DNA of 64,000 nt from Nitrosopumilus sp. (GCA_965204345.1 OZ241981.1:1632001-1696000), one strand, 5' to 3'; counted from the stretch's first letter, positions 9,794 through 31,827 are shown. Notes: generated by a model not told the origin, from the sequence alone. Translations and numbers: made by a program.

Positions 9794-9796
9794 GTA

Positions 9797-12475: not shown

Positions 12476-12783
12476 CGATCAGGCTGCTCTAATCCGATAT
12501 TAAGAATTACCGCTAACAGGCAGTCAAGCAGGTGTTCCTTTTTTTGCGTTGATTTTGTACTTGTCCTATCAAGTGAAATATTTGGAGAAAGAAAAATGGT
12601 TCTTTTGTATAGTCTAAAATCATTCTGTACTCAAGAATGATCCGGCTTTTTTCCTTGGGTGCTAAAATTTGAAAACACTTGTTTTTCTTTAACAGTCTAA
12701 TGCATTGTATAGTCTGGCCTTCACTTGCAAATAATTTTTTTTAAAAGGATCTGTTTTAGTATGTGAAAATATAACGAACTGAT

Positions 12784-15700
12784 GTGACTTTTACTCTGAA
12801 TCCTCAGCAAGACGAGGCGATACATCACGCTGATGGACCATTACAGCTAGTTGCAGGACCAGGCAGTGGAAAGACCTTTGTTCTAGTTGAAAAGGTAAAA
12901 AATCTTGTAGCCTCGGGCGTTCCGCAATCCTCTATTCTTTGTATGACTTTTACTGAAAAGGCAGCAGGAGAAATGAAACAGAGATTGGAAAAGTTTGGCA
13001 TCCTGGATTCTACGATCGCCACTTTTCATTCTTTTGCCAAGGAAGTTCTTGAAGATAATTTTGTAGAGTCCGGATTGGGGAAATTCACTAAAATCTTTAA
13101 AAAAACATCACAGCTTGTTTGGTGCATAAGAAATACCGACAGGTTTAATTTTAATTCAGACTATCTGGATGTTGGAAACAATCAAGTTAGAATCTATGCT
13201 GCAATCCTTGAGGCAATAAGCTCATACAAAGAAAAGATGATCTCACATGAAAAGCTTGCAAAATGCATTAAAGATAACCTGGAAAAATTAGAACAGTCTG
13301 ATCAGGCTGACCTGGAAGTAAAAAAACAGCTAAAGTCTTTTCATATGCTAAGCGAATTCAACAAAGTCTATACCGAGTATGAAAAATACAGGGAAGAGAA
13401 AAACCTGATTGATTTTGATGACATGGTGATCAAAGCTATTGCCCTGCTGCAAAGAGATCCCGTAGTTTTACAGCACTATCTTGACAAATTCAAGTATGTC
13501 CTAGTTGATGAATTTCAGGATAATAATTTCTCTCAACTAAAACTGGTAAAAATTTTGGGTTCTGGAAAAAATGTTACAGTTGTTGGCGATGATGATCAAT
13601 GCATAATGAGATTCCAAGGTGCATTCTTTGGAATCTTCAAGGATTTTCAAACTAGTTTTTCTGACTTTAAACGAATCGAATTAAGTAGAAACTATCGCAG
13701 TACTAAAAATATTGTTAATCTTGCAAGCCAGCTCTTGGAGCCAATTACCGCAAGAGAATCAAAGTCCCTCTTTTCTAAAGAGGAAGACGGCGAGCTTGTG
13801 CGCGTGATCACCACTCCTACTGACAGAGGCGAGGTTGAATTTGTTGCAAAGAGGGTACGAGAGCTGCTTGGCAAACCCCTAAGGAGACGGGATGGAAGCA
13901 CATCTCCAATAACTTACAGGGATATTGCAATTTTATCTAGAAGAAAAATAGAAGGCCAGCAGTTTACAAAGATACTGCGCTCATTTGGAATTCCGGCCAC
14001 GTTTGTTGGCGGGATTAACATCTTTACTAGTCCAATAATCTTAGATCTTGTTTCATATTTGAAAATTGCAAATTCTCCTACCACCTCCGGTGCGGAAATT
14101 TACCGATTGCTGAAAAATCATGGAATATCTGAGCAAAACATTGCCGTGCTGACAAATGCTGCCCATAAGAGAGCAAGATATGTCTATGAAGGCAGTCAGG
14201 ATTTTGTTTTAGATACGATTAGAAATTTTAATCGCTTTGATATAACGCAAAAATCTGAGATCTCTGAGTTACTTGAACAAATCGACAAAGTAATTGATAT
14301 AACAAGTCATGCGACAACAAGCGAACTAGTCTACAGAATAATGTTTAACATTTCTGATCTGTATAAAAAATCCATAAATTCAGAAAAGTCATTTGATAAA
14401 AAAAATATCTTATTGCTAAACAAGTTTTATGAAATTGCACAAGAATTCCAAGATCTTTACCCTACAAATCCCCTGTCTGACTTTTTAGAACACCTGTCTA
14501 TCATTGGAAATTTTGAGATTGAAATTGAAGATATTGTCATAGAAAATACTGTCAATGTCCTCACCATGCACAAAAGCAAGGGAAAGGAATTCCCAATTGT
14601 ATTTGTAACTGATTTGGCCGATGACAGGTTCCCTAGTAAATGGAAGGAACCTCTGTTTCCCATACCTGCCGAGTTGATGAAGGATACCAGCAGTACAGCT
14701 GACTCTGAACCCCTTCACATTGACGAGGAAAGACGCCTGTTTTATGTGGCCATGACTAGGGCAATGAACATGCTGTTTTTGCTATATCCTAAAAAATATG
14801 CAGGAAATGTCAATGAAAAACATCCCTCTCAGTTTCTTCGTGAATTGGATTATGAAAGCAATCCCCTAATTGAGAACATAAAGTTTGATGAATCTGAGAA
14901 TTTCAATATTGAATCCGAAGAACTAATTGAAAGAGAAAAATCCAGTTTACAGAGACAGGCAACTAGTGCAATTAACCAACAGCACCTGAGAACTGCAATA
15001 CATAGAATCATAGAATTATCCAGAATCAAACACTATGAAAAGTTTGGAAGCTTTGATGACTTTGATCCTACATCCATTCTAAAAGTTGATGTGTCTGATT
15101 TGGACTTAACATCAGATATTGTTGGCCAAAAAATGCCTCTAATCAACAAAGAGGAATTTACGCTATCCCCAAGCAGTATAAAGGCATACGATGACTGCCC
15201 GCTAAAATTTAAATTTCAAAAAATTCTCCGTGTTCCTCAACCCGCCAGTGTTGCCCTAGACCTTGGTACCGTAATTCATGCAGTAACTGAAGAGATGGCA
15301 AATGAAAAAGCTAAGGGAGAAAGCCTGTCCCGGGAGAAAGGTATCAAGAAACTAAAAGAAAAGTGGATTTTTCGTTCATATCAAAATCATACGGATGAAA
15401 ACAAGGCAATGGATAGGGCAGTTCAAATGATTGATGCATATCTAAGATGGGAGGACTCTACAAAAAACACCCTGGTTGAAACTGAGCTGTCATTTGAAGT
15501 AAAGATAGGTGAGATTACCTTTACTGGAAGAATAGACAGGCTAGAAAAAAATCCTGATGGCAAGTTTGAGATTGTTGATTTTAAATCCGGCTCTACTGTC
15601 AAATCAAAGAACAAGGCAAAAACTGATCCACAGCTAAACATTTACGCAAAAGCAATTGAGAAAATAAAGGGAGAGCTGCCAGTCAAGGCATCACTGTTTT

Positions 15701-15891
15701 ATGTTGAAAAAGACAAGATGGTGGAATATCCTGTAACTCCAGACTCTTTAAAAGATGCATTAGAGCCAATTGAGGAAATGACAAAAGAGATTCTAAAGGA
15801 GAACTTTATGCCTACGCCAAGTATGAAGGCATGCATGTATTGCCCGTATCAGAGTATCTGTGATGCTAAAATTCTTAATGAATCCATCTAG
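12784..15891 (+). CDS. UvrD/PcrA-family SF1 helicase fused to a C-terminal RecB-like PD-(D/E)XK nuclease with putative Fe-S cysteines
   Basis: AGPGSGKT, VDEFQD, VGDDDQ, NYRS, TMHKSKGKEF, EERRLFYVAMTRA; C-terminal CPLKF, GRIDRL, DFKSG, QLNIY, CMYCPYQSIC. Confidence 0.92.
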   Translation: MTFTLNPQQDEAIHHADGPLQLVAGPGSGKTFVLVEKVKNLVASGVPQSSILCMTFTEKAAGEMKQRLEKFGILDSTIATFHSFAKEVLEDNFVESGLGKFTKIFKKTSQLVWCIRNTDRFNFNSDYLDVGNNQVRIYAAILEAISSYKEKMISHEKLAKCIKDNLEKLEQSDQADLEVKKQLKSFHMLSEFNKVYTEYEKYREEKNLIDFDDMVIKAIALLQRDPVVLQHYLDKFKYVLVDEFQDNNFSQLKLVKILGSGKNVTVVGDDDQCIMRFQGAFFGIFKDFQTSFSDFKRIELSRNYRSTKNIVNLASQLLEPITARESKSLFSKEEDGELVRVITTPTDRGEVEFVAKRVRELLGKPLRRRDGSTSPITYRDIAILSRRKIEGQQFTKILRSFGIPATFVGGINIFTSPIILDLVSYLKIANSPTTSGAEIYRLLKNHGISEQNIAVLTNAAHKRARYVYEGSQDFVLDTIRNFNRFDITQKSEISELLEQIDKVIDITSHATTSELVYRIMFNISDLYKKSINSEKSFDKKNILLLNKFYEIAQEFQDLYPTNPLSDFLEHLSIIGNFEIEIEDIVIENTVNVLTMHKSKGKEFPIVFVTDLADDRFPSKWKEPLFPIPAELMKDTSSTADSEPLHIDEERRLFYVAMTRAMNMLFLLYPKKYAGNVNEKHPSQFLRELDYESNPLIENIKFDESENFNIESEELIEREKSSLQRQATSAINQQHLRTAIHRIIELSRIKHYEKFGSFDDFDPTSILKVDVSDLDLTSDIVGQKMPLINKEEFTLSPSSIKAYDDCPLKFKFQKILRVPQPASVALDLGTVIHAVTEEMANEKAKGESLSREKGIKKLKEKWIFRSYQNHTDENKAMDRAVQMIDAYLRWEDSTKNTLVETELSFEVKIGEITFTGRIDRLEKNPDGKFEIVDFKSGSTVKSKNKAKTDPQLNIYAKAIEKIKGELPVKASLFYVEKDKMVEYPVTPDSLKDALEPIEEMTKEILKENFMPTPSMKACMYCPYQSICDAKILNESI

Positions 15892-16600
15892 TCCTGCTAT
15901 CAGTTTCACTCACAGGCTCTGTGTCCATTGTTGCTATCTGTCTGTCCATTTTCATGAGAAAAGTCTTTTGCAAATCTATTGTAGATAGGCTAATTATTAC
16001 ATCTAATGAGGCTTGTATTTTTCTGTGTGTTTTATTGGAATGTTTACTATGTGTAGTTAATTTTAAATAAAATTTGGAATCTGGTTACTCTTTCCAAAAT
16101 GCTCGCTTTAGAATTTCTTGATTAATCTTATTTTTTCTTGGTGATTTTATCGTTATATTATAGGAATATGCTAAAACTGACTCAGGTTCTTTTCTAATTT
16201 TTTAATAATCTACTTTGTCATATGCAAGCTTATCACTTTGTGTCTCTTCTTTGCAGGGAAATTAAATGAATTTTGTCCTGATTTCACAGCGTATGCCGAA
16301 TTTTATCACCAGTTTCTACTGCAACATCAGTTCCTTACTTGGAGACACTGAAGACCTCCGGAAATCCGTTTTGCAATAAGTTACAGAATCGGTCTCCAAA
16401 AATGGTTTCAACTGATGATCAAATATGTGTAAAAAGAATTTGTTCTATAATTTCTGATGCTTTTTCTGTATCAGACACTCTAAACAAATATGTAGATTTT
16501 TTCTCCTAAGAAGTGTTTTTAGTTCTAATTTGTCTAGTCTTTGTAATCTGTTTTGATAAAAATTATTTGAACAGTTTGAAATTAGTTTTTCTAGATTATA
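15890..16600 (-). pseudogene. Degraded type II restriction endonuclease (PmeII-family-like)
   Basis: Fragments across frames: FYQNRLQRLDKLELKTLLRRKN, YLFRV..KASEIIEQIL..SSVETIFGD, AVKSGQN, AFW, NRFAKDF; multiple stops and frameshifts; directly downstream of the DNA methyltransferase. Confidence 0.65.
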
Positions 16601-16620
16601 CTATCTGGATTTGATATTTT

Positions 16621-17475
16621 TTATTTTCTTTTTTTGTTTACTTTGTTTTTTATTTGATTGGATTTTTTCCTAACTTCTTTAATTCTATTTAGCGCTGTTT
16701 TGTAATATTCTTCATGTACTTCTGTTCCTATAAAGTGTCGATTTAGATTAATTGCTGCCAATGCTGTACTACCACTTCCCATGAATGGATCTAATACCAA
16801 ATCTTTCTCTTTGGTAAATAATTTGATAAACCATGTAGGTAATGCTACTGGAAATGCTGCACTATGATTAACATTTCCGCATTCTGTAGGCATGTGGATG
16901 ACGTTTGTAGGATAAACAGTATCTTTTCCTACCCAATTTGATATATTTTTACCAAAACCACTTTGAACTTTTGATTCGTCTCTAACTTTGTCTGTTTTTG
17001 ATAGTTTTTTGAGACGTTTTTCAGCCCAATCCATCATTGGAACTTTAACTGCATCCTGATTCATGTAGAATTTTTTCTGTTTAGTAAAATGAAGACATCT
17101 CTCCCATGCATCTCTGAATCTATTTGGCCATTTGCCTGGAAACGAATTTTTTTTATGCCAAATGTATTCTTCTGTCCATAGCCATCTTTGCTTTCTCATC
17201 TCTAAAATCAGTTCTAAAACATAGGTTCCTCTTTCACCGTCTATTGTTCTTTCTTTAATGTTTAAAACAAAAGATCCATCTGGCTTTAAAACTCTCCTCA
17301 ATTCTGCTGAAATTGGAAGAAACCAGTCAACATATTTTTTTGTTGGAACTCCCACATAGGTCTTCTTTCTGTTATCTGCATAAGGTGGCGAAGTAACAAT
17401 AAAGTCTACAGAATTCTTTTCTAGTTTCTTTAACATAGAAAGACAGTCTTTATGATAAATTTTATTTAGATTCAC
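16621..17475 (-). CDS. Beta-class amino (N4-C/N6-A) DNA methyltransferase
   Basis: TSPPY catalytic motif before LDPFMGSGST SAM-binding motif; H.AAFP motif. Confidence 0.93.
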   Translation of the reverse strand: MNLNKIYHKDCLSMLKKLEKNSVDFIVTSPPYADNRKKTYVGVPTKKYVDWFLPISAELRRVLKPDGSFVLNIKERTIDGERGTYVLELILEMRKQRWLWTEEYIWHKKNSFPGKWPNRFRDAWERCLHFTKQKKFYMNQDAVKVPMMDWAEKRLKKLSKTDKVRDESKVQSGFGKNISNWVGKDTVYPTNVIHMPTECGNVNHSAAFPVALPTWFIKLFTKEKDLVLDPFMGSGSTALAAINLNRHFIGTEVHEEYYKTALNRIKEVRKKSNQIKNKVNKKRK

Positions 17476-17525
17476 AGATTTTTTTTTATTTTACCTCTTT
17501 TATGTGTGGGTAATAGTATCATATG

Positions 17526-18494
17526 CTAGTTTGAATCTGTTTTAGTTATATGATATTTCTCAGTTTCTATCTTAAATAATTGATCATTGAAAATTATTTC
17601 AGCAGGGTTTTGAATTCGTATAGGTTCTCTTGGAGATAATCTAGATTTAACATCTACTTCTGAAATAAAATAAATCCAATATTTTTCTCCATACTTTTTC
17701 GCTTTTTCTAGCTCATTTGATGACCAATAGAAATCTAATTCTTTCTCAGCTGAACCTTTTACTTCGATATAAATTTCATTTATGTTTCCATTGTGTTCTG
17801 AAAATGATTCTATGTCATAACCCGCATTTACAAATTCTTCACTAATTCTTTTTACTTCTTCTGATTCTTTTATGTGACCTTCTTTTTTGAGCCTATTTAT
17901 CTCAAATTCCAAAACAATTTCTTCTGCAATTTCTCCTATAATTTTCCAATTTTGTAGTTGAATTTCAAGTTGTTTTAATGTCATTTTCTTTTGAGATTTA
18001 CTAAATATGCTAGCATGTTTTGGGTTAATCACAACTTTGATGTGTTTCTTAAGAAGAATTTCTAATTCATACAAAAGTGGCAGTATTTCGGGATTTTCAA
18101 ATCTGCCGTAAATTTCTTCTTTTGGACAGCATTTATTTTGATTTTCATCCGTATCAAATTTAGAAAATGTATTTCTTATTTTCTCTCCTAATTCTGTTTG
18201 AATTAGAGATTCTTTGATAAAAATCTCTTTGAATTCTTCACTGATCTTGTTTTCTTTATGACATTCTAAAATTTTTTCTCCAAGTTCAGTCAAAAAAATC
18301 TCATCAGTTTCAATTTTCAATAATTTTAATTCGTTGCATATCTTTTCAACTTCTTCATAATTAGGTAATCTAGCTTGTTTAACGGGCTCATCATTATAGG
18401 TTTGTTGGACATAGATCCGTGAAGCAAATTTTTCTTTTTCATATAATTTAATTAAATGTAAAAGTTTAGGAATATCATTAAGAGTTAGTGCCAA
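17526..18494 (-). CDS. DUF3883 (NOV C-terminal) PD-(D/E)XK nuclease-domain protein
   Basis: GEIAEEIV..E, GYDIESF, YIEVKG, SSNELEKA...YWIYFI. Confidence 0.85.
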   Translation of the reverse strand: MALTLNDIPKLLHLIKLYEKEKFASRIYVQQTYNDEPVKQARLPNYEEVEKICNELKLLKIETDEIFLTELGEKILECHKENKISEEFKEIFIKESLIQTELGEKIRNTFSKFDTDENQNKCCPKEEIYGRFENPEILPLLYELEILLKKHIKVVINPKHASIFSKSQKKMTLKQLEIQLQNWKIIGEIAEEIVLEFEINRLKKEGHIKESEEVKRISEEFVNAGYDIESFSEHNGNINEIYIEVKGSAEKELDFYWSSNELEKAKKYGEKYWIYFISEVDVKSRLSPREPIRIQNPAEIIFNDQLFKIETEKYHITKTDSN

Positions 18495-18500
18495 TTATTT

Positions 18501-20450
18501 TCAGTATCTGCTTCGTAAATGTTCTATGACTGCTTGATAATCTTTGTTAAATTCTGTATCATCGATATGTTCAGGTTCTGGATTAATATCAATAGATTCT
18601 AGCATGTCGTCATTTAATGCATGAAGCATGTCTTTCCATTTTTCATTTAATCTTCTATTAATTACCTCATCTATTGTATTTTCTGCTGTTATGATATGAT
18701 ATTCAACATTTATTTTTTTATCCATTCCTATTCTATGGATTCTGTCCATTGATTGCATGTATTGTGCTCCGTTGAAATTTCTATCAAGATAAATTGCATG
18801 ATTACAAACATTTTCTTTTTTTGAATTTTTGTGTAAAGAAACTGATTCACCAAGTGATGCTGCAGATGTAATTAATATTCTAGGCTCTGTACTGTTTTTG
18901 AATTCAGTTATCAATTCATCTCTATTTTCAGGTTCACTGAGTTCTCTTGGTGTCTTTCCATTGATCACAATAGGTTTTAGATCTGATAATAGATTATTTT
19001 TGAAAATATCCATGTTATGAATAAATGAATTCCAAATGATTACTTTGTGTTCTTTCTCTACAAATTCTCTTGCTAATTGTGCTGCTTTCACCATCTTTGA
19101 AGGTATTTCAAATTCAGAATAATGGGCAATTTTATCAATTATTGAATTTTCTACTCCTGGTAACTTGATTTTACTAGGTGGTAATCCAAACTCTTCTGCA
19201 AATGTTTTACTGTTTACATCAAAATCCGAAGACATTTCATGTAGTAAACTTGGATTAGATGCTGTTTGCAATAATCTCATTAATCTTGCAATTCTAAATT
19301 TTTGTAATTTTCCCTGCTCTTGAATTGTTGTTTCTTCTATTTCTTTGAGAGTTTTTGCAGCAATAGCATCATAGATTTCCTGCTGTCTGGTGTTTAGCAC
19401 AACTTCGTGAAGTATCCATTTTGGTTTTGGTAAATCAAGATCATCCTTTTTAATTCTACAAAAAAGATTATCCAAAGTTGATTTGTGTTTTCCTATCCCT
19501 CGTTTGTTAACATAGTTGTTGTATATGATTTGATTTCCTAAAGGTTCATCACTTGGCCACAAAAATGTAATTTGTGTCCATAAATCCTTGGCATTATTTG
19601 GCATGGGAGTTCCTGATAGAATAATTCTTCGTTTTGCTCTTGGTGCAATATTGATTGCAGTTGATGCCCATTTTTTCAATTTTGGACTTTTGATATAGTG
19701 AGATTCATCTATAATTAGAACTGTTTTATATTTTTTCATAAATTCTTGTAATTCCCATTGATGATTCATTGCACTGTTAAAGTGCATTAAAAAAAGATCA
19801 TACGAATCACCTAATTTGTGAAATTCTTTTGCAAATTCTCCACTAATTCTAAGTGATCTGGGTCTCTTACCAAAGCATTCTTCATATTCTTCTTCCCATG
19901 GAAGAAATGATGCTGTGGGGCCAATGACAAAAATTTTCTCTACAATTCTATCTTCTAACCATCTTGATATTGCTGCATACGTAATTGTTGTTTTTCCACT
20001 ACCTGGAACTGAAAAATTTGCAGCATTTCCAAGTGTCATCATGTGCTCTACTGATTCTTTTTGATAATCTTTTAACTCTCTTTGAAAATTTTTTGAAATG
20101 TTTGGATTGTGTTCTTTCTTATTTTTGATCTCTTCTCCATTTTTGATTGCATTTTTATAAAAATCTACATCATTTTGAATTTCTTCTATTGATCTCTTAA
20201 CTGACCCACAAACATCAACATTTTCTTCTCCAAAATCTCTTAGAAATTTATCTACGGTCCATTTAATTCTCTTGTTAAACTGTACCATATCTTTATTTTT
20301 GTAAGTGTATAGGTGTTTTGATTTTTCTCCAAATCCCGATTCTTTTAAAAAATCATCAATACTCCAATCTTTATCAAAATCGTTAGTAGGTTCAAAATTT
20401 ACGACTATATTTTGTTGTTCATCAATACATATTTTGTGCAATTTCATCAA
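18501..20450 (-). CDS. SNF2/SWI2-family ATPase
   Basis: LKDYQ, PGSGKT, IIDESHYIK, LSGTPMPNNAKDLW, QSMDRIHRIG. Confidence 0.92.
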   Translation of the reverse strand: MMKLHKICIDEQQNIVVNFEPTNDFDKDWSIDDFLKESGFGEKSKHLYTYKNKDMVQFNKRIKWTVDKFLRDFGEENVDVCGSVKRSIEEIQNDVDFYKNAIKNGEEIKNKKEHNPNISKNFQRELKDYQKESVEHMMTLGNAANFSVPGSGKTTITYAAISRWLEDRIVEKIFVIGPTASFLPWEEEYEECFGKRPRSLRISGEFAKEFHKLGDSYDLFLMHFNSAMNHQWELQEFMKKYKTVLIIDESHYIKSPKLKKWASTAINIAPRAKRRIILSGTPMPNNAKDLWTQITFLWPSDEPLGNQIIYNNYVNKRGIGKHKSTLDNLFCRIKKDDLDLPKPKWILHEVVLNTRQQEIYDAIAAKTLKEIEETTIQEQGKLQKFRIARLMRLLQTASNPSLLHEMSSDFDVNSKTFAEEFGLPPSKIKLPGVENSIIDKIAHYSEFEIPSKMVKAAQLAREFVEKEHKVIIWNSFIHNMDIFKNNLLSDLKPIVINGKTPRELSEPENRDELITEFKNSTEPRILITSAASLGESVSLHKNSKKENVCNHAIYLDRNFNGAQYMQSMDRIHRIGMDKKINVEYHIITAENTIDEVINRRLNEKWKDMLHALNDDMLESIDINPEPEHIDDTEFNKDYQAVIEHLRSRY

Positions 20451-21646
20451 CTACTGTATTTTTTCTTTAATTCTTCTGAATATCTTAAAATTTTTTCAAT
20501 TAGTGAAATTGCTTTTGGAGATGATAATTCATTCCCTTGATAATCTAATAATGGCCTTAGGTTTTTCTCAGCCCTGCTTAATAACAAAAATTCCTTTCCT
20601 TCGTTATTACTTACATCTAAAACATCTGCAGCATTAACAAAATGAATATAAGTTGGAGTCATTTCTCCCTTATTTTCTTCAATTATTTCTTCAGAGTTTT
20701 TTTCTTGAGGTGCAGTTGGTTTTAATTCACTTCCTGCTGCTTCAATTTCTATAATTGCATCTGTAAGATCTTTTTCAATTATTTGTCTGATCTTCCTTAA
20801 TTCTAAGTGTTGTATTCCTTCTTTGATTAATTGAAATGCTGTTTTTTTAATTTTTATAATTTTTTCTGGTTCGTAATCTCTATTTTTACATTCTTTAATG
20901 ATATTTTGAAGATTGATAAAATGTTCTACTTTATTTTTTACTTGAGAATATTTTTCTGGAATCCCAACGAATGTTAAATATTGATCAATTAGTTCTAACC
21001 TGTTTAGTTTTTCTTTAATTTCCTCTTCCTTGTCATATCCATAAAGTGTATTGACAATAGCTTTTTCTGATAATCCAGCTTCTTTCCCTTCTCTAAGTTT
21101 TAAAAGATCGTTAATAGGGCCATATCTTACAATCTCATCTTTTCCTAATTGTATTCCCGCCTCTAATGTCCAAAGATCTTCAGGCGATATTGATTCTTCC
21201 AAACGAGCAACTTCTAGATATTTCCATTCATCTAATCCTGTATCTTCATAAAGTTTAGAAATGATAGACATTCTTCTATTTCCGTCAATTACATATCCGT
21301 CTTCTGTAATTACTCCACAATTCCATTGCCCACGTACTTTAAGATCTTTATATGTTCTTTTTGTCTCAGTTGGTTCTAAATTTAATAACATCTCTTTAAT
21401 TTTTTTTGAATCCTCACTTATTTCGGGTCGCAGATGTCCTCCTTCTCTTTTAACTAGTTCCTTATACTCTGCTGCAAATCTTCCATTTCTAATATTATAA
21501 AATAATAAATCTGTGGGTAATCGATATACTGTAAGCACTTTTTTCTTTCCTTGTAGTGAAATTGGAAATCCATCCTTGAGTTGACATTCTGAGTGATCTG
21601 AAATGTATTTGTCAATTCTGATCTTACTGTCTGTATTTAAGCTCAT
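20447..21646 (-). CDS. ParB/Srx-like domain protein, paralog 2
   Basis: GVITEDGYVIDGNRR arginine patch; stop overlaps the SNF2 start. Confidence 0.75.
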   Translation of the reverse strand: MSLNTDSKIRIDKYISDHSECQLKDGFPISLQGKKKVLTVYRLPTDLLFYNIRNGRFAAEYKELVKREGGHLRPEISEDSKKIKEMLLNLEPTETKRTYKDLKVRGQWNCGVITEDGYVIDGNRRMSIISKLYEDTGLDEWKYLEVARLEESISPEDLWTLEAGIQLGKDEIVRYGPINDLLKLREGKEAGLSEKAIVNTLYGYDKEEEIKEKLNRLELIDQYLTFVGIPEKYSQVKNKVEHFINLQNIIKECKNRDYEPEKIIKIKKTAFQLIKEGIQHLELRKIRQIIEKDLTDAIIEIEAAGSELKPTAPQEKNSEEIIEENKGEMTPTYIHFVNAADVLDVSNNEGKEFLLLSRAEKNLRPLLDYQGNELSSPKAISLIEKILRYSEELKKKYSS

Positions 21647-21692
21647 ATTATCATATCCTTGAATTTTGTATAGATAGTATTTTTAACATCCA

Positions 21693-22871
21693 TTATTTTT
21701 TTAATCTCTTAATTACTGCTTCAATATCTAAAATCAATTGATATATTTCAGATTTTTTCAATATGCTTGAATCAAAATCAATACTTTCTAGATTTGTTAA
21801 TGCACGTTTGAGTAATTTTTCTGGCTGTTGGGATTCTGACAATGCCTTTGCGGCATCTAGACAATTATTGAAAATTGTTCTTGCTGGAGTAAATTCATCA
21901 TTCATGTCTGCTTGAATTTTTCTCTCTCTCTTTTTGTTAGCTTCTTCTGGTTTACTATACTCTGTGGCTTGCCAGAATTCTTTTCTTGATTTTTCATTTG
22001 CCAGAATTTCTTTGATTTTCCTAATTTCTCTTTGAGGTACACCATCATGAATCAATTGAAATCCTATTTTTTTTGCACTTGTAACTTCATCCGGATTTAC
22101 TCCACTTTTTCTAAAATTATTCAGAACGTTTCGTAAATCGATAAAATGTTCATGTATTCCTTTTGCTCTGTTGAATACGCCTGGTTCTCCAATATAACTT
22201 AGATATTCGCTGATAAGGCTTAATTGTTCCATCTTATCCACGATGTCTTTTTCTTTAAATCCTCCATAGAGCGAATTTGCTATTTCAATGGGTGTTAATT
22301 CCGCATCAATTCCTTCTTTGAATTTTAATAATTCATTAATTGGTCCATACTCTACCTGAACATTTTTTGATAATTGTATTCCTGCTTCTAGCTTCCACAA
22401 ATCTTGTGATGACACATTTGGTGGAAGCCTTGCAACTTCAATAAACTTAAATTCTGAATGTCCTAATGAACATAATTCTTCAAGTACAGAACGTCTTCTA
22501 TTCCCATTGATGACAAATCCATCCCAAGTAATTATTCCAGGATCTTTTTGTCCAAACTGTTGAAGATCTTTTTCTAAAATTCTACTTTGTTTAGGATCTA
22601 ATTCAAGCAATAATGATTGAATATCTTTTGAATCTTCTTCATTTTTAGGATCTAACTCCCTTCCTTTCTTTTCTACTAAATCTATATACTCTGCTGCAAA
22701 TCTCCCATTCTTGATATTATAGAATGTGTGATCTAAAGGTAAACGCCATGTTTGCAAATCCATTCGTTTACCTTGTAATGTTACTGTGATTGTTCTTGGT
22801 ACTTTACAATCTGGATTGTTTTGTATATACTCATTAATTTTTATCGCATCTGCTGCATTCTCATTATTCAT
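21693..22871 (-). CDS. ParB/Srx-like domain protein, paralog 1
   Basis: GQKDPGIITWDGFVINGNRRR; homologous along its length to 20447-21646; start placed at ATG 22871. Confidence 0.75.
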   Translation of the reverse strand: MNNENAADAIKINEYIQNNPDCKVPRTITVTLQGKRMDLQTWRLPLDHTFYNIKNGRFAAEYIDLVEKKGRELDPKNEEDSKDIQSLLLELDPKQSRILEKDLQQFGQKDPGIITWDGFVINGNRRRSVLEELCSLGHSEFKFIEVARLPPNVSSQDLWKLEAGIQLSKNVQVEYGPINELLKFKEGIDAELTPIEIANSLYGGFKEKDIVDKMEQLSLISEYLSYIGEPGVFNRAKGIHEHFIDLRNVLNNFRKSGVNPDEVTSAKKIGFQLIHDGVPQREIRKIKEILANEKSRKEFWQATEYSKPEEANKKRERKIQADMNDEFTPARTIFNNCLDAAKALSESQQPEKLLKRALTNLESIDFDSSILKKSEIYQLILDIEAVIKRLKK

Positions 22872-22930
22872 AGAATAGTGTTTTTTGATGGAAATAAAAC
22901 ATTTTGCATGATGATTATCGTTGCCCCTGA

Positions 22931-25099
22931 TTATCTGCATTTTTTACATCTTGATTGTCTACGTAATGAAAATCTGTCTTCTTTACTCATTTGCCTAAAT
23001 CCAAATCTCTCTTCAACTTCTTTGAGGTTATGTGCAATGTCTCCACAATGTGGACATTTGGCTTCAGTGGATTCATCAGTACTTGAGTATCTTAATCTGT
23101 TTAGAAATAAATCCATTCTTCGTTCGATCTTTCTCAAATGTTTTTTTATGTTAATTTTGGATGATTTCTTATCCGACGTTAAAATTTCTTTGACAACTTC
23201 ATTCAATGTAAAAATTAAATGATCACATAATCCATTTGATCTGCTTTTTTGATTCCATTCAAAACAAGTACATGAAAACAAATCTTCTGTGGAATATCTC
23301 AATGATGATTTATCAAGATGTTTTACAAAATTAATTTCTGTTTTGAATCCTTCTTCAAAAATGCATTCAATGTATTTATCTGGGAAGATTCTAATCTCTG
23401 GTATTTTTTTTAACCGTGATGAAATAAATAGTTCATCTGAAATTATTTTTCTAAATATTTCTATTTTTGAAATCTGATGTAGTTTTCCTAAAAATTGAAA
23501 ATACATGTTTGAATAATCAATGAATTTTTTTGTACTAACAGGCAATGTTAATTCTTCAAGTGCTCCTATGTATTGGGTTTTTTCTTCCATATTTGGAAAT
23601 AAAATAATATCTGCTCTACCTGATTCGTAGTTTATTGATTTAATTTTTACAATGCTTCCGCGATTGTCTCCTTGTCGTACAACTGCAACTGCTCCTCTTC
23701 TTGATGGGATTATGGGAGTAATTTTACACCACTCTTCTAATTCTTTTTTAGAAATTATCTGAATTGTTTTATTTTTTTTTAATATTTTTTTTACAATTTT
23801 TTCAGGTTCTACAAATGAAATAACGAAGCCTTGTTCATTACGTTTTCTTTCTTTTAATTTTAAAATCAAGTCTGAAATTTTACCAACTGTAATTTTTTCA
23901 TTTATGAATACTTTGATGTAAATGATGTTTGATTTTATTTCCAGATTTAAATTTTGGATAACTTTTTGTTGTTCTTTTGTAAATTCATAGTTGGATAAAT
24001 CAACTGCAAAATCAAATTGGTCTAGGTCATTAGGAGGATGACTCATCATGTTTGAATTAGTCAAAATCATGCCTGCAATTCTGGTTACTTGGTCATCCTG
24101 ATCTTCAAAATCTCCTTTTTCAAGTTCAACTAATTCTGCAATGAACTTATCTGAGGTCATTTTTCTTCCAAAAAATTTTCTATTTTTCTTCCAAGACAAT
24201 GTGCTATCTTCATTCATTTTTTTATAATTTTCAAAAGTAAAAAATTGATCAAAAAATGGCTTGGACTTCCAATATCCATCTTTTCTAATAACTTGATTTT
24301 GGTTAATGAAATCTTGTAATGTCATTACAATCAATGGATTGGGAATTTGTGCAATTATTGGAAGTTTTTCTTTAAGTGAGATGATTAATTCTTGATATGT
24401 AACTCCTTCCATTCTATTTTGGATTATGTTAAAAATGTATTCTTTAAAAAATAATTGATGTTTTTCTAGCCTAATGTCTCCATGTTCATTAGTTTCTAAG
24501 AAAAAATTATTTTTCAAATCAATTATGATTTTATCTATCATTTCATTGATTTTTTCATTACTAATTGTAGAAAGGGACACATGCGGTGTTAAAATCAAAT
24601 GTTCAAAATCTTGAATTATTTGTGGTATTGATTGAGAAATTTTCTCTTTGTTTGTAAAATCTTGTTCATTTAAAAATAATTGTATTATTATTATTGCTCT
24701 TAATACATTATAACTTATTTTATTTTTGATTAGTTGCTGATGTTTTGACAATACTTGCTGCAAAAATTCATAACGTTTTGTTAATCTTTTATCTTCCAGA
24801 TTGATTCTTCGTGACTCTGCATTTTTACCGATTACTCTTCTTTTTATATTTAATTTTAAAATCTGCAAAAGTTTGTAATAATCAGTAAATCCAAAAAGAT
24901 GAAATTTCTCTATAAGATCTTTAGAATATTTTCCATTCACATACATTTCCAAAAATTCTAATAAATCTACAAATGGAAACTGTTCGTCTATTTTTTGGAG
25001 AGTGCCTTTGAATTCGTTATGATGAATATCTTGTTTTAGATCATCAATTAGAGTTTGCAATTTTTTAACAAATGGATCTACTGGTTCCTGAAATGCCAT
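22931..25099 (-). CDS. Large multidomain protein with SWIM Zn finger and C-terminal C4 Zn finger
   Basis: CTC...CDH (SWIM-like), CPHC...FGFR...CKKC; central REase-like and KOW-like segments are tentative. Confidence 0.7.
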   Translation of the reverse strand: MAFQEPVDPFVKKLQTLIDDLKQDIHHNEFKGTLQKIDEQFPFVDLLEFLEMYVNGKYSKDLIEKFHLFGFTDYYKLLQILKLNIKRRVIGKNAESRRINLEDKRLTKRYEFLQQVLSKHQQLIKNKISYNVLRAIIIIQLFLNEQDFTNKEKISQSIPQIIQDFEHLILTPHVSLSTISNEKINEMIDKIIIDLKNNFFLETNEHGDIRLEKHQLFFKEYIFNIIQNRMEGVTYQELIISLKEKLPIIAQIPNPLIVMTLQDFINQNQVIRKDGYWKSKPFFDQFFTFENYKKMNEDSTLSWKKNRKFFGRKMTSDKFIAELVELEKGDFEDQDDQVTRIAGMILTNSNMMSHPPNDLDQFDFAVDLSNYEFTKEQQKVIQNLNLEIKSNIIYIKVFINEKITVGKISDLILKLKERKRNEQGFVISFVEPEKIVKKILKKNKTIQIISKKELEEWCKITPIIPSRRGAVAVVRQGDNRGSIVKIKSINYESGRADIILFPNMEEKTQYIGALEELTLPVSTKKFIDYSNMYFQFLGKLHQISKIEIFRKIISDELFISSRLKKIPEIRIFPDKYIECIFEEGFKTEINFVKHLDKSSLRYSTEDLFSCTCFEWNQKSRSNGLCDHLIFTLNEVVKEILTSDKKSSKINIKKHLRKIERRMDLFLNRLRYSSTDESTEAKCPHCGDIAHNLKEVEERFGFRQMSKEDRFSLRRQSRCKKCR

Positions 25100-25249
25100 A
25101 TTGTTCTAATAATACTTTCATAGATAAGTGTCAATTGGTCACAAAAAATAAGATTTGCATTTTTTCAGGATGACGTGTTATTGAATGTTCCATTCATTAG
25201 GAACCGTCGATTAATAACACATTAAATACACTATCTGACTAGTCTATCC

Positions 25250-25759
25250 ATGTTTGGCAAGAAACCCACATTAAAAGAGGGAACTCACATCTTCTCAGTT
25301 AAAAAAAACGGCGAGTTCAATGACTTTATCTTTGGCGTAGTTACCGGTGTAGACGGACAAAAAGTAGGCGTCAACGGGGTAATTGTAAATCCTGTTGGAC
25401 TGAAAAACAAGATTGCCCAAGGAAAAACAGGCCAGCGCTCCAGAGAAATCTTAGAATACCCAAATCCTGACAATGTGGTCCTGGCTTTGGTGTACAGAGT
25501 TGAGCATGAAAATTACGCTGACGTGCTGGATCTTGACGTTGACAAGTGTGATATTCTTCCTCCAAAAATCTATGCAATGCTTGATGGCTGGATTAGAGAG
25601 TCGCTGCCAGAGTTCTTTAATACTGTCTTGTCCCTGCCGGAGGGTTCTGAGAGAGACGAGGCAAAACGAATCCTAAGAAACAGAAAGGACACCCTGTCTG
25701 ATCCGCATCTCAGACGGACAGTATATGCTGTTTGTAGAAGTCTGAAGATCCTCAACTAA
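25250..25759 (+). CDS. Hypothetical protein
   Basis: 169-aa ORF with host-like composition and a TATA-like element upstream. Confidence 0.75.
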   Translation: MFGKKPTLKEGTHIFSVKKNGEFNDFIFGVVTGVDGQKVGVNGVIVNPVGLKNKIAQGKTGQRSREILEYPNPDNVVLALVYRVEHENYADVLDLDVDKCDILPPKIYAMLDGWIRESLPEFFNTVLSLPEGSERDEAKRILRNRKDTLSDPHLRRTVYAVCRSLKILN

Positions 25760-25824
25760 ACTTTTGAATTTTGGGCGTGGGTTCTCCATAGTTTTATATT
25801 ATGCCCCAAGAAAATCTCGATACA

Positions 25825-26136
25825 ATGGAATATGTTTACGCTGCTTTGCTTCTTCACAAACTAGAAAAGGAGATTAACGAGACAAATCTCAGCTCAGTTG
25901 TAAAGGCATCCGGAGCTGAAGTTAATGAAGCCCAAGTTAAATCACTGGTTGCAGCCCTGGCCGATGTCAACATCGATGAGGCAGTCAAAGCCGCACCTGT
26001 AGCAGTTGCACCCGCAGCAGCAGCCGCACCAGATGCAGCAGCAGCAAGTGGTGGTGAAGAAAAGAAGGAAGAAAAGAAGGAAGAACCCAAAAACGAAGAA
26101 GCAGCCATGGAAGGACTGTCTTCATTATTTGGCTAA
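25825..26136 (+). CDS. rpl12: 50S ribosomal stalk protein P1 (archaeal L12)
   Basis: [11 protein letters not shown] start, Ala-rich hinge, acidic tail ending GLSSLFG. Confidence 0.96.
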
Positions 26137-26199
26137 GCGACCTTACTTTTTTCAGTTTAATTTTGATTTTTATTTTTGTTAATCCTAATTACTTTCAAC

Positions 26200-26762
26200 T
26201 CTGCTGATTGGTCGATTTTACTACTTTTCCAATAGGTGATTTTATCAGCATTCTGGATTATTTGTAAACGATGGCATTTGCAGTTACTGGAGCATCCAGT
26301 GGTTGCACACAAGGCTGATATTTTTGGAATTGTTGTCTTTGCGACCAGAGATGCAGGCAGGACTCGGGAGATACTGTCTTTGGATGACTCTCTGCTGCAT
26401 TTTCAGATTCCGTCTATGCCAGTATTGCCGCAGTTGTTGGGGTTGCTGTTTGGAGAGGTGTTACTGCCATTGGTCAAGGAATCCTGAGCATTGGCAACAC
26501 AAACATTGGCACTGCAAACCGTGGGTGGTTACTGCCATTGGCAGAGGAATTCTAAGGGATGCCTGTTGGAGAAATCCCCAGTCTTTGTTAAAAAAGTCTA
26601 TTGCTGTTGCAGGCATGATTGGAATTGTAATTTTTTTTTACTTTGTCATCTCATTTGGAGTCAATGTGGGGGATGCATCTGTCATTGCAATTGCTGCGAC
26701 TATCAGAACACATCTAGTTGCAATCAAACGCAGCTGACATCTTTCTAAGGTTAGGGAAACTT
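26200..26762 (+). pseudogene. TRIC-family (UPF0126) membrane protein pseudogene
   Basis: Fragments ILDYL*TMAFAVTGA, HKADIFGIVVFAT, AFSDSVYASIAAVVG, VTAIGRGILRD split over three frames. Confidence 0.7.
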
Positions 26763-27627
26763 AGGCCGGAGTGTAATCCTTTGCCTGACTGGCAACTGAT
26801 TTTGCCTGCGAGTCTGCCTTTTGCAATATCTGCTCCTTTGTTTCATCTGTCATGAATCCTGATTCTACGGATACAGAGCGTGCAGACTGTGCTGCCTTGC
26901 CAAGAATCTGTGAAATATTATCTGCTGTGACATATGCTGCCTCAATAGACAGTGAGACTGCCTCTTGGTGTGCCTGAACGAATTCCCCTCTGACTTTCTC
27001 AACATCAATTATCATCTCTTCCTCTGCATAGGTGAGCCCTTCCTCTAATGCCAGATAAAGTGAAATGCCTGCCTCCACCGGCTTGATATCTAATTTGCCT
27101 AAAATTGATGCCAATTTCTCATTGATTGCATCCCCTTTCATTACTGGTGTACTGTCTTTTGCAATCCAGATTGTTCCCTGATCAATTTTGGTAGGAATTC
27201 CTGCCTCCTTGAATTCCGTAAGCATTGGTCCTGGTGCAATGCCCGTATTCTTGGCTGGAACCACAATGTCCATGCTTGCAATATCTCCGCCTCTTGCAGC
27301 CATCATGACTTTGTTTTTGGCAAGAAGCACGTTTAGCTTGAATGGTGACATGTTCGTAAACAGGAACATGCACTGGCCTGTTAGCTTGTCTGCAATCTCT
27401 TTAATGCCTGAGACGTCAAGTTCAGACAGTGCCTTTCTTGCAACCTTGTCCTTGATGCTGAAAAACTCTACATCCTCCTGAAGTGTCTTTCTTAAAGGAA
27501 GAATTTGCGTAGAGCGTACCTTGTTCATCCTGATTACAGCTAAAACCTTGTATTTTTTTGGCAGCTCCTGCAGCTGCTGATACATCTGGACTTTTCTTTT
27601 AGGGTATGTGGTCCTGTTCTCATGCAT
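26761..27627 (-). CDS. rpl10: 50S ribosomal protein L10 (P0)
   Basis: TGIAPGPMLTEFK, GIPTKI, LGKLDIKP. Confidence 0.95.
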   Translation of the reverse strand: MHENRTTYPKRKVQMYQQLQELPKKYKVLAVIRMNKVRSTQILPLRKTLQEDVEFFSIKDKVARKALSELDVSGIKEIADKLTGQCMFLFTNMSPFKLNVLLAKNKVMMAARGGDIASMDIVVPAKNTGIAPGPMLTEFKEAGIPTKIDQGTIWIAKDSTPVMKGDAINEKLASILGKLDIKPVEAGISLYLALEEGLTYAEEEMIIDVEKVRGEFVQAHQEAVSLSIEAAYVTADNISQILGKAAQSARSVSVESGFMTDETKEQILQKADSQAKSVASQAKDYTPA

Positions 27628-28282
27628 ATTTTTTCTTAACCTCTTGCGCCTGTTTTACCGGCTTGCCCATTGTAGTTTTAATCAGGATCTTTTTCATGTT
27701 CTTCTCGCCGTTTGGAAGTTTCTTCTCAATTGCGCTTAGAACCGCATGTGCATTAATTGCCAAATCCGAATCCTCCATTGTCACATCCCCTATTTTAGAT
27801 GAGACTGACAGTGATGCCCTTGTCCTTACCTTGATGCATGATCTAAATCTTTCCAAGAATGCTTCAATGGATGCATCAAAAGGAACCGGCGTTGGCATTT
27901 TTCCTCTTGGGCCTAAAAGCTGGCCCAGTGTCTTACCTACAGTTGGCATTACCTTTGTATCTGCCAAAAAAAAGTCATACTTGTTAATGAATTTTCGAGA
28001 TTCTCTCTTGTTAGTGCCAAATTTTTCTAATTCTTCTGTTCCAATCACCGAGTCTGCCTTGGCCGCTTTTGCCTTTTGATTCATGTCTCCCGTAGCTATG
28101 ATACAGACAGTTGCCGGAGAGCTAGTCTTTGGCAGCTGAACAACCTCGTTTAGGGCAAATCCCTTCTTGACATCAATGTCCTTGAAGGTAATGATCAACT
28201 CTATGGACTGTTTGAATTTTCTCTCCTTTGTTGCAGCTTTTGCCTCCTTTATCATTTCAGTAAGCTGAGTCTCTGTAATCAT
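27620..28282 (-). CDS. rpl1: 50S ribosomal protein L1
   Basis: LGQLLGPRGKMP, KTTMGKP. Confidence 0.96.
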   Translation of the reverse strand: MITETQLTEMIKEAKAATKERKFKQSIELIITFKDIDVKKGFALNEVVQLPKTSSPATVCIIATGDMNQKAKAAKADSVIGTEELEKFGTNKRESRKFINKYDFFLADTKVMPTVGKTLGQLLGPRGKMPTPVPFDASIEAFLERFRSCIKVRTRASLSVSSKIGDVTMEDSDLAINAHAVLSAIEKKLPNGEKNMKKILIKTTMGKPVKQAQEVKKKYA

Positions 28283-29889: not shown

Positions 29890-30063
29890 TTATCCACCAA
29901 ATGTAATTACCGAAAAGACAAACTGTATGGTAAAACCAATAGCTCCCACTCCTGCAATTCCTAATAATACAAGTCTGAGATGTTGCTGATATTCATCTTT
30001 GTCTGGTTTCTTGGCCATTTTCATGGTATTGGCCATATTCTTCAGAGTCTGCTTGGGGTTCAT
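29890..30063 (-). CDS. secE: Protein translocase SecE/Sec61-gamma (not in ORF track)
   Basis: 57 aa MNPKQTLKNMANTMKMAKKPDKDEY..GIAGVGAIGFTI with one TM helix; canonical position upstream of spt5. Confidence 0.92.
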   Translation of the reverse strand: MNPKQTLKNMANTMKMAKKPDKDEYQQHLRLVLLGIAGVGAIGFTIQFVFSVITFGG

Positions 30064-30301
30064 TGCTGAAAATTAATAAGGTGTCCTTATATCTCTTGTT
30101 TCATATTAGCCGTGTTTTGATATTTCTAGGCTTGTCTGTATGGGTACCGTACAAAGTACCGTATGGATTTCTATCTGAGTCACAATTTGAAGATCATTCT
30201 CTTAAAATTTTTATTCATGTCTTGATCCCTTGATTGTAAAAGTTACACAAACAAGAACAAAATCATAAATAGTTATACGACGTCATAAAATTGAGACAAT
30301 C

Positions 30302-30433
30302 ATGACTGAAGAAATGGATTTTACTACTGCTCCTTGTATTTGGACAGAGAGAGATGCTGAATATGTAGCTGATTATGAAATTCATCAAGAACTAGGTTTA
30401 AAAAATGTCAAGACTTTAGGAATCAAAGAATAA
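30302..30433 (+). CDS. Small acidic hypothetical ORF (43 aa)
   Basis: MTEEMDFTTAPCIWTERDAEYVADYEIHQELGLKNVKTLGIKE; TATA-like TTATA upstream. Confidence 0.35.
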   Translation: MTEEMDFTTAPCIWTERDAEYVADYEIHQELGLKNVKTLGIKE

Positions 30434-30704
30434 TAATTATTTTTTAGAGCATGACTAGATGACCTTGTAAACATGCACCAAGGTTCAACAGAAAAGTTAT
30501 CAATCTAAAAACCAATTTGCATCTTACAGAATTAGAAGACTGTGTAAATGCATTGCAGATCAGCATGATCCTTTTGTATTGAGAATATTACAACTTGCAA
30601 AGAAATCGTAAACAAAAAAATTGTTCTTTACATCCTACGGATGGCATATTGTCTTTAGATTTGAACATCAAGAGATTATTTTCATAATGTTCTATAATAA
30701 TTCT

Positions 30705-30822
30705 GATAACCCCAAGTCATAATGTGGCAAAATTTCTTTCAAAAGAAATGACTTTGAAGGATAATGATATTTTTCATGGAGATTTTTATGATCTTGCAAT
30801 AATTCCAACTTCTGCAATTTCA
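30705..30822 (+). repeat. Diverged duplicate of the 5' part of dtdA (31852-31971)
   Basis: Shares TGGCAAAATTTCTTTCAAAAGA, TTTTCATGG.GATTTTTATGATCTTGCAATAATT and CTGCAATTTCA with the dtdA 5' region. Confidence 0.85.
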
Positions 30823-30872
30823 CTTATGATTCATGAGAATCATTAAAATAATATTTCCTACTTTCCAAGATA

Positions 30873-31607: not shown

Positions 31608-31827
31608 TTCCTTGGTAAGTAAATCATGTAATCTTCTTTATGATAGATGAGTTTTTATCCGAATTTGCACCTTAGGTGCTTGTTGTTGCAGTAGTTGTAG
31701 TTTTGGCATGATATCTGGCCTAGATTGTTTCCCCCCTAAAACATCTTTATTTTTTTTAAATTATGATTTTCCTCTATGAGAATATCTATTATGACACGTT
31801 TATTGCATACCCAATATCTCTTATCTC

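Follow-up and report, generated by a model that had tools for sequence, protein, structure and literature searches.

A ParB-like, SNF2 and DUF3883 gene trio in an island of Nitrosopumilus sp.: a candidate defence cassette related in design to AbiR

Two described defence systems come close in design to the gene cassette analysed here. AbiR of the Lactococcus lactis plasmid pKR223 is built from a sigma70-like protein (AbiRi), a ParB-like protein that has been superimposed on PDB entry 5K5D (AbiRii) and a protein combining an endonuclease with an Snf2 ATPase (AbiRiii). It requires the LlaKR2I methylase, is toxic without it and lowers phage DNA replication; a 2026 review calls its mode of action unclear (PMC13064643). 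The Hma system, which is type-1 BREX-related, contains an SNF2-DUF3883 fusion together with a methylase (PMC11232893, PMC12839542), and in HmaA the DUF3883 domain acts as a nickase without which T4 is not warded off (PMC11232893). Here we describe a minus-strand cassette in an island of a 64,000-nucleotide stretch of Nitrosopumilus sp. DNA (GCA_965204345.1 OZ241981.1:1632001-1696000; the whole stretch is called the window, and positions are counted from its first letter). The constant unit of this cassette is a trio of genes in the order ParB-like, SNF2 ATPase and DUF3883 nuclease.

The gene trio and its closest relatives

The cassette is occupied by six co-oriented open reading frames (ORFs) on the minus strand, encoding a SWIM protein, ParB-like 1, ParB-like 2, SNF2, DUF3883 and a DNA methyltransferase (MTase), in this order, with the remains of a restriction endonuclease (REase) behind them. 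Curated Pfam models recognise three of the six proteins, namely SNF2, DUF3883 and the MTase; the three upstream proteins of 722, 415 and 399 amino acids (aa) gave no match in Pfam, NCBIfam or PADLOC. The features are as follows.

22931..25099, minus strand: SWIM/winged-helix/Zn-ribbon protein, 722 aa, with two predicted winged helices, a conserved central domain, a KOW/Tudor-like barrel, a SWIM domain and a C-terminal ribbon
21693..22940, minus strand: ParB-like 1, 415 aa, paralogue of ParB-like 2 (39% identity, E 3e-90), partner of the SWIM/Zn-ribbon protein
20447..21646, minus strand: ParB-like 2, 399 aa, predicted ParB/Srx fold (AlphaFold2 model and structural matches), partner of SNF2
18501..20450, minus strand: SNF2-family ATPase, 649 aa, with an N-terminal extension of ~120 aa (PF00176, E 7e-18, and PF00271)
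17526..18494, minus strand: DUF3883/NOV_C PD-(D/E)XK nuclease, 322 aa, with an N-terminal domain of ~180 aa (PF13020, E 8e-19)
16621..17475, minus strand: beta-class N6/N4 DNA methyltransferase, intact, 284 aa (PF01555, E 4e-49; PADLOC type II MTase, E 5e-53)
15950..16594, minus strand: pseudogene of an EcoO109I-family type II REase (tblastn with the intact enzyme of locus L034)

An initial annotation of this DNA had already placed all seven features, including the dead REase, and ORF calls, Pfam and tblastn recovered each of them at the same position. The tight coupling that it had reported (the stop of ParB-like 2 overlaps the start of SNF2, and 6 nt separate SNF2 from DUF3883) is present, as are the motifs GNRR in both ParB-like proteins, DESH and EVK.

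The trio is smaller than the seven-gene set that had been proposed. Besides the window, 17 related genome loci were compared, six of which came from one scan and eleven from a search of same-class genomes. In the window and in 15 of the 17 the three genes are present with order and strand unchanged; a Thermoplasmata archaeon and a Patescibacteria bacterium are among the hosts. Two loci depart from this: L036, with two ParB-like genes and neither SNF2 nor DUF3883 within 20 kb, and L043, a weak match (E 9.5e-5). Metagenome counts were taken from 72 loci, near-duplicate contigs included. An SNF2 gene lies within 400 bp after all 31 near-complete ParB2-type genes that have at least 500 bp of downstream sequence, and DUF3883 follows all 24 SNF2 genes that reach the C-terminus and have at least 500 bp downstream. 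The initial annotation had staked its proposal beforehand on the genes travelling together, and in genome and metagenome loci alike the core set of ParB-like 2, SNF2 and DUF3883 does so.

The ParB-like family is rare, patchy and island-borne. It was found in none of 60 other same-genus genomes (one draw) and in 14 of 401 same-class genomes, the window's own included. A profile search returned 1772 cluster representatives at E <= 1e-3, 1230 at E <= 1e-10 and 219 at E <= 1e-30. None of the 120 near relatives listed has a precomputed Pfam domain that would explain it, and one carries PF00833 only.

Across archaea and bacteria the ParB-like/SNF2 pair is constant. In the prophage record of Streptococcus phage Javan191, a BanI/DpnII-like REase gene is followed by those of ParB-like (428 aa), SNF2 (652 aa) and NOV_C (311 aa) proteins, with a C5 methylase gene next to them. 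Among Bacillota plasmids, one from Priestia carries dcm, a ParB-like gene and an SNF2 gene with an N-terminal PLD nuclease, with a Sau3AI-type endonuclease alongside. Enterococcus faecalis plasmids encode a sigma70-like helix-turn-helix (HTH) protein, a ParB-like protein and SNF2, and on an L. lactis plasmid type III Mod and Res are followed by a 'ParB N-terminal domain-containing protein' and a helicase. The archaeal ParB-like profile matched the Streptococcus ParB-like protein with 99.7% probability and that of Enterococcus with 99.1% (hhalign for E. faecalis). The nuclease is interchangeable: in the window it is the separate DUF3883 protein, whereas in Priestia and in an SNF2 homologue from the window's genus it is fused to SNF2, as a PLD and an Mrr domain, respectively. 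The PLD domain of the ParB-linked SNF2 protein of the Priestia plasmid (L118, 8214-10769) also matches the PADLOC model PbeA (E 2e-65), which links the module to a nuclease that is used in a phosphorothioate-associated system as well.

Homologues were recovered from 68 plasmid records, most of which are Enterococcus plasmids of the mobilizable or conjugative kind, and from four phage records. Such carriage would be expected if the pair were gear of a plasmid, virus or integrated element, serving in partition, in the exclusion of rival elements at entry or, as is the case with polyvalent proteins, in anti-restriction, with the archaeal copy as a relic. ParB-superfamily, SNF2 and methylase domains are hubs of phage and plasmid polyvalent proteins (PMC5512222), and thaumarchaeal conjugative elements bear ParB-like genes (PMC6563490). 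We nevertheless regard this explanation as quite improbable. ORF calls and library scans found no integrase, replication, conjugation, ParA or capsid gene in the island, the conserved partner of the pair is an intact nuclease, and restriction-modification (R-M) genes are its neighbours. Plasmid carriage is also usual for defence systems, AbiR being an example.

The likeness to AbiR, the nearest system that has been studied by experiment, lies in a ParB-like gene next to an Snf2 ATPase that carries or is accompanied by an endonuclease, and concerns architecture only, as set against the description in PMC13064643. The structure on which AbiRii was superimposed, 5K5D, is the best match of ParB-like 2, and both systems have an R-M system alongside, which in AbiR supplies the methylase it needs (PMC13064643). 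The operon of the E. faecalis plasmids, with its sigma70-like HTH protein, ParB-like protein and SNF2, has an AbiR-like design, and its ParB-like protein is homologous to that of the window by the hhalign match given above. The window lacks the sigma70-like component of AbiR and has in its place a SWIM/winged-helix protein together with a second paralogue of ParB. Its nuclease is a separate DUF3883 protein and not an N-terminal domain of the ATPase, and its methylase, from an R-M system of the EcoO109I type, is an amino-MTase of the beta class. Plasmid searches returned no AbiR-like record from Lactococcus plasmids.

With Hma the cassette shares an SNF2 ATPase, a DUF3883/NOV_C nuclease and a DNA methylase, and two loci (L005, L041) carry a DUF1156-type, HmaB-like methylase beside the trio. 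In the window, however, SNF2 and DUF3883 are two genes with a 6-nt gap and not a fusion of ~1150 aa, and SNF2 has no match to the PADLOC model of HmaA at E <= 0.01, although this model was included in the library. The DUF499 ATPase (HmaC) was detected in none of the eight island proteins scanned, the third component being ParB-like instead, and the window MTase matches PF01555 only, without DUF1156.

The best PADLOC match of the window SNF2 protein is ZorD of type I Zorya (E 3e-29, helicase core), and a same-genus genome encodes an SNF2 protein, 45% identical to that of the window, fused to Mrr as in the ZorD architecture. The matches to ZorD, DrmD and DpdE are partial, however, and cover the helicase core only; the island contains no ZorABC, DrmABC or Dpd genes, and the NCBIfam bit scores stay far under the cut-offs (ZorD 47 vs 1500, DrmD 17 vs 610). 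A ParB-like partner is absent from the Zorya, DISARM and DpdE systems.

The cassette had been presented as an undescribed system. This holds in so far as the PADLOC check proposed at that time found no model that covers the ParB-like proteins, archaeal or bacterial; with AbiR and the type-1 BREX-related Hma as close relatives in design, the cassette is not fully undescribed. Particular to the window are the duplicated ParB, the SWIM/winged-helix partner and an R-M system with a decayed endonuclease and a kept methylase. We found no publication describing the set of ParB-like, SNF2 and DUF3883 genes in the literature searched, which did not cover supplementary tables, and the set is not described in the excerpts of PMC10853773, PMC12839542, PMC3710099, PMC6563490, PMC5512222, PMC11529989 and PMC13069673.

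On balance we consider it probable, with considerable room for doubt, that the trio is a restriction-like immune machine, comprising a ParB-like loader, an SNF2 translocase and a DUF3883 nuclease, with a methylase that protects the host.

The ParB-like proteins and the predicted complex with SNF2

The AlphaFold2 model of ParB-like 2 was built on an alignment of 21 homologues of the 399-aa protein together with the 415-aa paralogue of the window, and reached a predicted local distance difference test score (pLDDT) of 84.6. In the VIA structure search, which is independent of Foldseek, the top four matches were all of the ParB/Srx type: 5k5d_B (pNOB8-type ParB-N; Z 9.5, root-mean-square deviation (rmsd) 3.9, 212 aligned residues), 1vz0_A (Spo0J; Z 8.5, rmsd 3.7, 166 residues), 6ryk_B (PadC; Z 8.2, rmsd 2.6, 96 residues) and 6ky4_A (sulfiredoxin; Z 8.0, rmsd 3.4, 86 residues). 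Lower-ranking matches involve only a hairpin in the final 50 residues. Foldseek placed ParB, Noc, Spo0J and pNOB8-type ParB at ranks 1 to 11 in the PDB, with E values of only 8.5e-3 to 5e-2. A PDB sequence search with ParB-like 2 gave a lone chance match (E 1.8), which was discarded.

The residues G122-N123-R124-R125 are invariant in all 22 aligned members, including both paralogues of the window, and the same is true of E162 and Q166 in the block LWxLEAGIQL. These two blocks resemble boxes II and III of ParB, and GNRR stands at the position of GERR in ParB. The E. faecalis and Streptococcus homologues retain the GNRR motif in the form DGNRR. Model and alignment thus support a ParB/Srx fold with an arginine motif in the ParB-like proteins. 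ParB-like 1 probably begins at the ATG of position 22871, which gives 392 aa; the N-terminal 23 residues of the longer form are without a counterpart in the homologues.

As in ParB, Noc and KorB, the predicted ParB/Srx fold at the N-terminus is followed by a helical, putatively DNA-binding region. The cassette differs from ParABS systems in lacking a ParA-like gene, an absence already remarked on in the initial annotation and found to hold for the whole island, and in lacking a recognisable parS-like palindrome, no strong one being present in 15800-25400. It also differs in its rare, island-borne distribution, in having an SNF2 ATPase as the constant partner and, as taken up below, in its relation to curated ParB models.

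A fold model of SNF2 (residues 1-600) with ParB-like 2 yielded an interaction prediction score from aligned errors (ipSAE) of 0.69 (median of three runs), and the best of three controls reached 0.01. Of 80 solved complexes 58 attain this level, and so do 2 of 110 mismatched pairs; since own alignments went into the model, these counts apply only approximately. The contacts agree to at least 97% among the runs, with a partner pLDDT of at least 76. In the predicted interface, SNF2 residues 25-68 and 306-313 meet residues 222-313 of ParB-like 2. The model supports a docking of SNF2, by its N-terminal extension, on the helical middle part of ParB-like 2 that comes after the ParB/Srx domain. A multimer model of four proteins had been suggested as a check at the outset; the fold model of these two, set against its controls, supports their binding.

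The two enzymes of the trio appear intact in their motifs. In SNF2 the Walker A residues G150/G152/K153/T154, the sequence D248-E249-S250-H251 and the motif VI residues Q566/R570/R573 are invariant in 20 of 20 proteins. In DUF3883, D227, E244, V245 and K246 are invariant in all 19 aligned homologues, and a PADLOC search with this domain gave matches to PD-T4-1, PDC-S36 and TmtA.

The methylase, the SWIM module and the island

The MTase has SPPY early in the protein and an FxGxG-type motif late. Behind it, the REase pseudogene aligns with the intact enzyme of L034 (PF14511, E 1e-57) at 30% identity over 227 columns (tblastn E 2e-18); five stops interrupt the frame, and a further piece aligns in a different one. 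Judged by these alignments, the window MTase is what survives of a type II R-M system of the EcoO109I type, of which the window contains an intact MTase and an endonuclease pseudogene and so no complete copy. An intact REase lies beside the MTase orthologues of L034 and L037, and a member of the REase cluster (BLASTP) is also found in L001.

In 30 loci the DUF3883 gene was complete and had 1 kb or more of sequence downstream. Thirteen of them have an MTase orthologue (>50% identity; 63-80%) directly after DUF3883 on the same strand, accompanied by a full-length REase in two loci (L034, L037), a frameshift-split one in two (L048, L057) and a truncated one in one (L073); in the remaining eight no REase was found. 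In many loci the MTase gene, encoded on the strand of DUF3883, overlaps the stop of that gene or lies right against it. Some DNA MTase is present in 13 of the 16 trio-bearing genome loci, window included, within the stretches retrieved. Other types beside the trio are a D12 MTase with a HaeIII-type REase, DUF1156-type enzymes and Eco57I/MmeI-type enzymes. Damaged EcoO109I-type REases were seen at L048:10957-11696 and L057:12024-12763 (frameshift), at L073:7352-7783 (truncation) and at 15950-16594 of the window (many stops). The differing damage points to repeated independent decay; frameshifts in metagenome loci could be assembly errors.

The SWIM protein carries a CxCx12CxH SWIM motif (residues 610-627) that is invariant in 22 of 22 homologues, and a C-terminal CxxC...CxxC zinc ribbon. 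Its AlphaFold2 model has a pLDDT of 82.4. VIA matched residues 121-215 to a cullin WHB winged helix (Z 10.5) and residues 215-293 to a winged helix of linker-histone or Fur type (Z 9.2), and resolved only these two domains. Foldseek found nothing at E <= 1e-3; KOW/Tudor-like matches over ~50 residues were weak (E > 0.1). From these models we predict a multidomain DNA-binding protein. The most conserved block, at residues ~300-460, reads FEDQDDQVTRIAGMIL ... FDFAVD. An Atlas search with residues 300-560 gave no usable match, and the central block has weak Foldseek matches to FokI and MspJI, a hint that it may be a domain like those of restriction enzymes. SWIM proteins are associated with bacterial SNF2 genes.

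The SWIM protein pairs with ParB-like 1 as a module that is separable from the trio. Full-length SWIM genes adjoin a ParB1-type gene in the window and in six further loci, and in L003 the SWIM gene lies just beyond DUF3883 on the opposite strand. In four loci a protein of ~70-82 aa with the same C-terminal zinc-ribbon module is encoded immediately upstream of ParB1. In four divergent loci (L035, L038, L039, L040) a protein of 229-297 aa after DUF3883 belongs to the SWIM cluster by zinc-ribbon similarity only and lacks the SWIM motif. A second ParB-like gene directly follows only 15 of 36 ParB1-type genes; elsewhere an Eco57I/MmeI-type IIG enzyme or a protein with KTSC and INT_rpt domains sits between ParB1 and the second ParB-like gene.

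Both kinds of intervening gene recur. Type IIG R-M enzymes of ~950-1075 aa (Eco57I/MmeI-like) are found between ParB1- and ParB2-type genes or after ParB1 in seven loci (L050, L052, L059, L076, L080, L091, L107), a placement which suggests that R-M cargo is taken up in a slot between the two ParB modules. Proteins with KTSC and/or INT_rpt ('integrase repeat unit') domains stand right after ParB1-type genes or ahead of the trio in eleven loci, among them L004:3832-5583, L033:4454-6208 and L017:5991-7370 (the others are L073, L074, L076, L077, L090, L095, L097 and L098). In the same-genus genome G014 a KTSC/INT_rpt protein precedes the SNF2-Mrr fusion, whose identity to the window SNF2 is 45%.

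The cassette is part of a larger insertion, to which one further gene of note belongs.

12476..25249: inserted island, 12.8 kb, between alaS (9797-12475, minus strand) and a conserved gene for a 169-aa protein (25250-25759, plus strand)
12784..15891, plus strand: UvrD-type SF1 helicase fused to a PD-(D/E)XK (Cas4/AddB-like) nuclease, 1035 aa (PF00580, E 3e-62; PF13361, E 2e-47; PF12705, E 1e-40)

The distance between alaS and the 169-aa gene is 12.8 kb in the window and ~80 bp, 1.3 kb and 3.4 kb in the same-genus genomes G012, G019 and G017. We place the insertion at ~12476 to 25249 because the flanking genes are ~80 bp apart in G012. The gap between the two genes is a variable hotspot within the genus. 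All 1-kb bins of 16001-25000 have a G+C fraction of 0.26-0.32, compared with 0.41-0.46 at 9001-13000 and 25001-28000; bins and ORF calls bear out the sharply AT-rich, co-oriented minus-strand cluster of the initial annotation. No integrase, tRNA or flanking direct repeats were found at the island edges. The right flank is the ribosomal P1/L10/L1/L11/NusG cluster. The AT-rich cassette is most likely part of a horizontally acquired defence island.

The UvrD-nuclease gene belongs to the same insertion and lay outside the originally proposed set. It is a recurrent neighbour of the trio with a possible accessory role: of the 16 genome loci that carry the trio, 5 have a homologue adjoining it (the window, L033 with 80% identity, L035, L038 and L039), in L038 and L039 directly upstream and on the same strand, and homologues are also present in three metagenome loci. 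The family occurs in 56 of 401 same-class genomes, where it is accessory, and in 9 of the 13 sampled genomes whose ParB-like match is clear (at most E 8e-16; a weak match in G408 was left out). Outside the island, two other low-GC stretches of the window, 30001-32000 (0.32-0.35) and 53001-54000 (0.33), could be acquired islands. The sole tRNA detected, tRNA-Gln(CTG) at 2244-2332 on the minus strand, is unusually long (89 nt, anticodon reported at position 28) and may contain an intron or be an odd call.

Several observations weigh against a restriction-like machine with its own protective methylase. The window-type MTase is missing downstream in 17 of the 30 loci, and no MTase was found in L002, L003 and L006, whose neighbours were only partly scanned. 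Identity to the window is flat for the MTase (63-80%) and ranges from 31 to 76% for SNF2, which fits an independently mobile R-M system or repeated capture at least as well as an integral self-marker. Since L098 carries a SWIM-cluster gene and ParB1 with no trio in the 5.9 kb downstream, the seven genes need not act together. Plasmid-borne homologues, both conjugative and mobilizable, could serve the plasmid and not the host. The ParB-like proteins match no curated ParB model in Pfam, NCBIfam or PADLOC at the thresholds used; ParB-like 1 has a weak PHROG ParB-like match (E 0.0023), and the ddrB-ParB matches of bacterial homologues (E 0.002-0.007) fall short of the cut-off. The ParB-like identity given in the initial annotation is supported by structure and not by curated sequence models. 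With no such match and Foldseek E values of only ~1e-2, it is the arginine motif by itself that suggests binding of a nucleoside triphosphate. The analogy with AbiR supports a similar way of working, and in it AbiR is compared by description only.

Some of these points would be accounted for if the cassette were a patchwork of independent systems in a shared hotspot, made up of a decayed type II R-M system with an orphan methylase, a ParB-SNF2-nuclease effector that acts independently of methylation, a SWIM/ParB-like 1 module and a UvrD-nuclease, with the methylase irrelevant to the effector. The modules do occur apart, the MTase has its own cognate REase family and its divergence is uncoupled from that of the trio, quite different R-M genes (D12 with HaeIII-type, Eco57I/MmeI-type, DUF1156-type) stand beside the trio elsewhere, and the site between alaS and the 169-aa gene varies among relatives. 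On the other side, AbiR is reported to need the methylase of its neighbouring R-M system (PMC13064643). The MTase gene overlaps or abuts the DUF3883 stop in many loci and is kept where the REase is broken or gone, and in L037 REase and MTase lie within the tightly packed gene run of the trio. We think a mere patchwork unlikely, if worth keeping in view. Of the claim that the whole gene set forms one system, the part concerning ParB-like 2, SNF2 and DUF3883 is retained; it fails for the SWIM/ParB-like 1 module, which is separable, and for the MTase, which comes from a type II R-M system.

The loci without a window-type MTase downstream are also compatible with modification-dependent, type IV-like restriction. 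GmrSD and BrxU are examples of modification-dependent enzymes with a ParB/Srx fold (DUF262). The ParB-like protein might act like the DUF262 part of GmrSD, SspE and BrxU, so that the trio would attack modified foreign DNA. The coupling of ParB/Srx-fold NTPase domains to nucleases is a theme of such enzymes (PMC12839542, PMC10853773). Near the trio, however, 13 of 16 genome loci have a DNA MTase, and a methyl-directed enzyme would there attack its own host if the two had the same specificity. Methylation, moreover, protects the host in AbiR (PMC13064643), and library and structure scans detected no SRA, EVE or other modified-base reader domain. We give this explanation little credence.

Proposed mechanism and its meaning

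Returning to the restriction-like immune machine that we favour, we propose the following sequence of events. The ParB-like protein would bind DNA and nucleotide through its GNRR pocket and would load or license the SNF2 motor. SNF2 would then track along double-stranded DNA and bring the DUF3883 nuclease to cut. The neighbouring DNA methylase would shield the DNA of the host, as reported for AbiR (PMC13064643), and the methylase of the decayed EcoO109I-type R-M system may have been retained as such a protective mark. The SWIM protein and ParB-like 1 would probably add an extra DNA-reading or regulatory layer. Nucleotide gating by the ParB-like proteins and self-marking by the MTase are steps that we infer.

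ParB is the textbook factor of chromosome partition and was recently found to be a CTP-dependent sliding clamp. It is possible, though we hold it somewhat doubtful, that a nucleotide-gated clamp of the ParB type has been repurposed here as the sensor or loader of an SNF2-nuclease, has been duplicated in this archaeal lineage to serve the motor with one copy and a SWIM/winged-helix/Zn-ribbon reader with the other, and has been joined by the methylase of a dying R-M system, captured as a self-mark. Such a capture, if true, would explain why several loci still have the methylase when the endonuclease that belonged to it has decayed or gone.

A large unannotated ParB-like family tied to SNF2 and a nuclease in archaea and bacteria suggests a widespread immune use of the clamp principle. 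If true, it would supply a mechanism for AbiR, a phage-resistance system known since 2000. For the ammonia-oxidising archaea, whose viruses and defences are poorly known, the island marks a strain-specific defence hotspot beside alaS.

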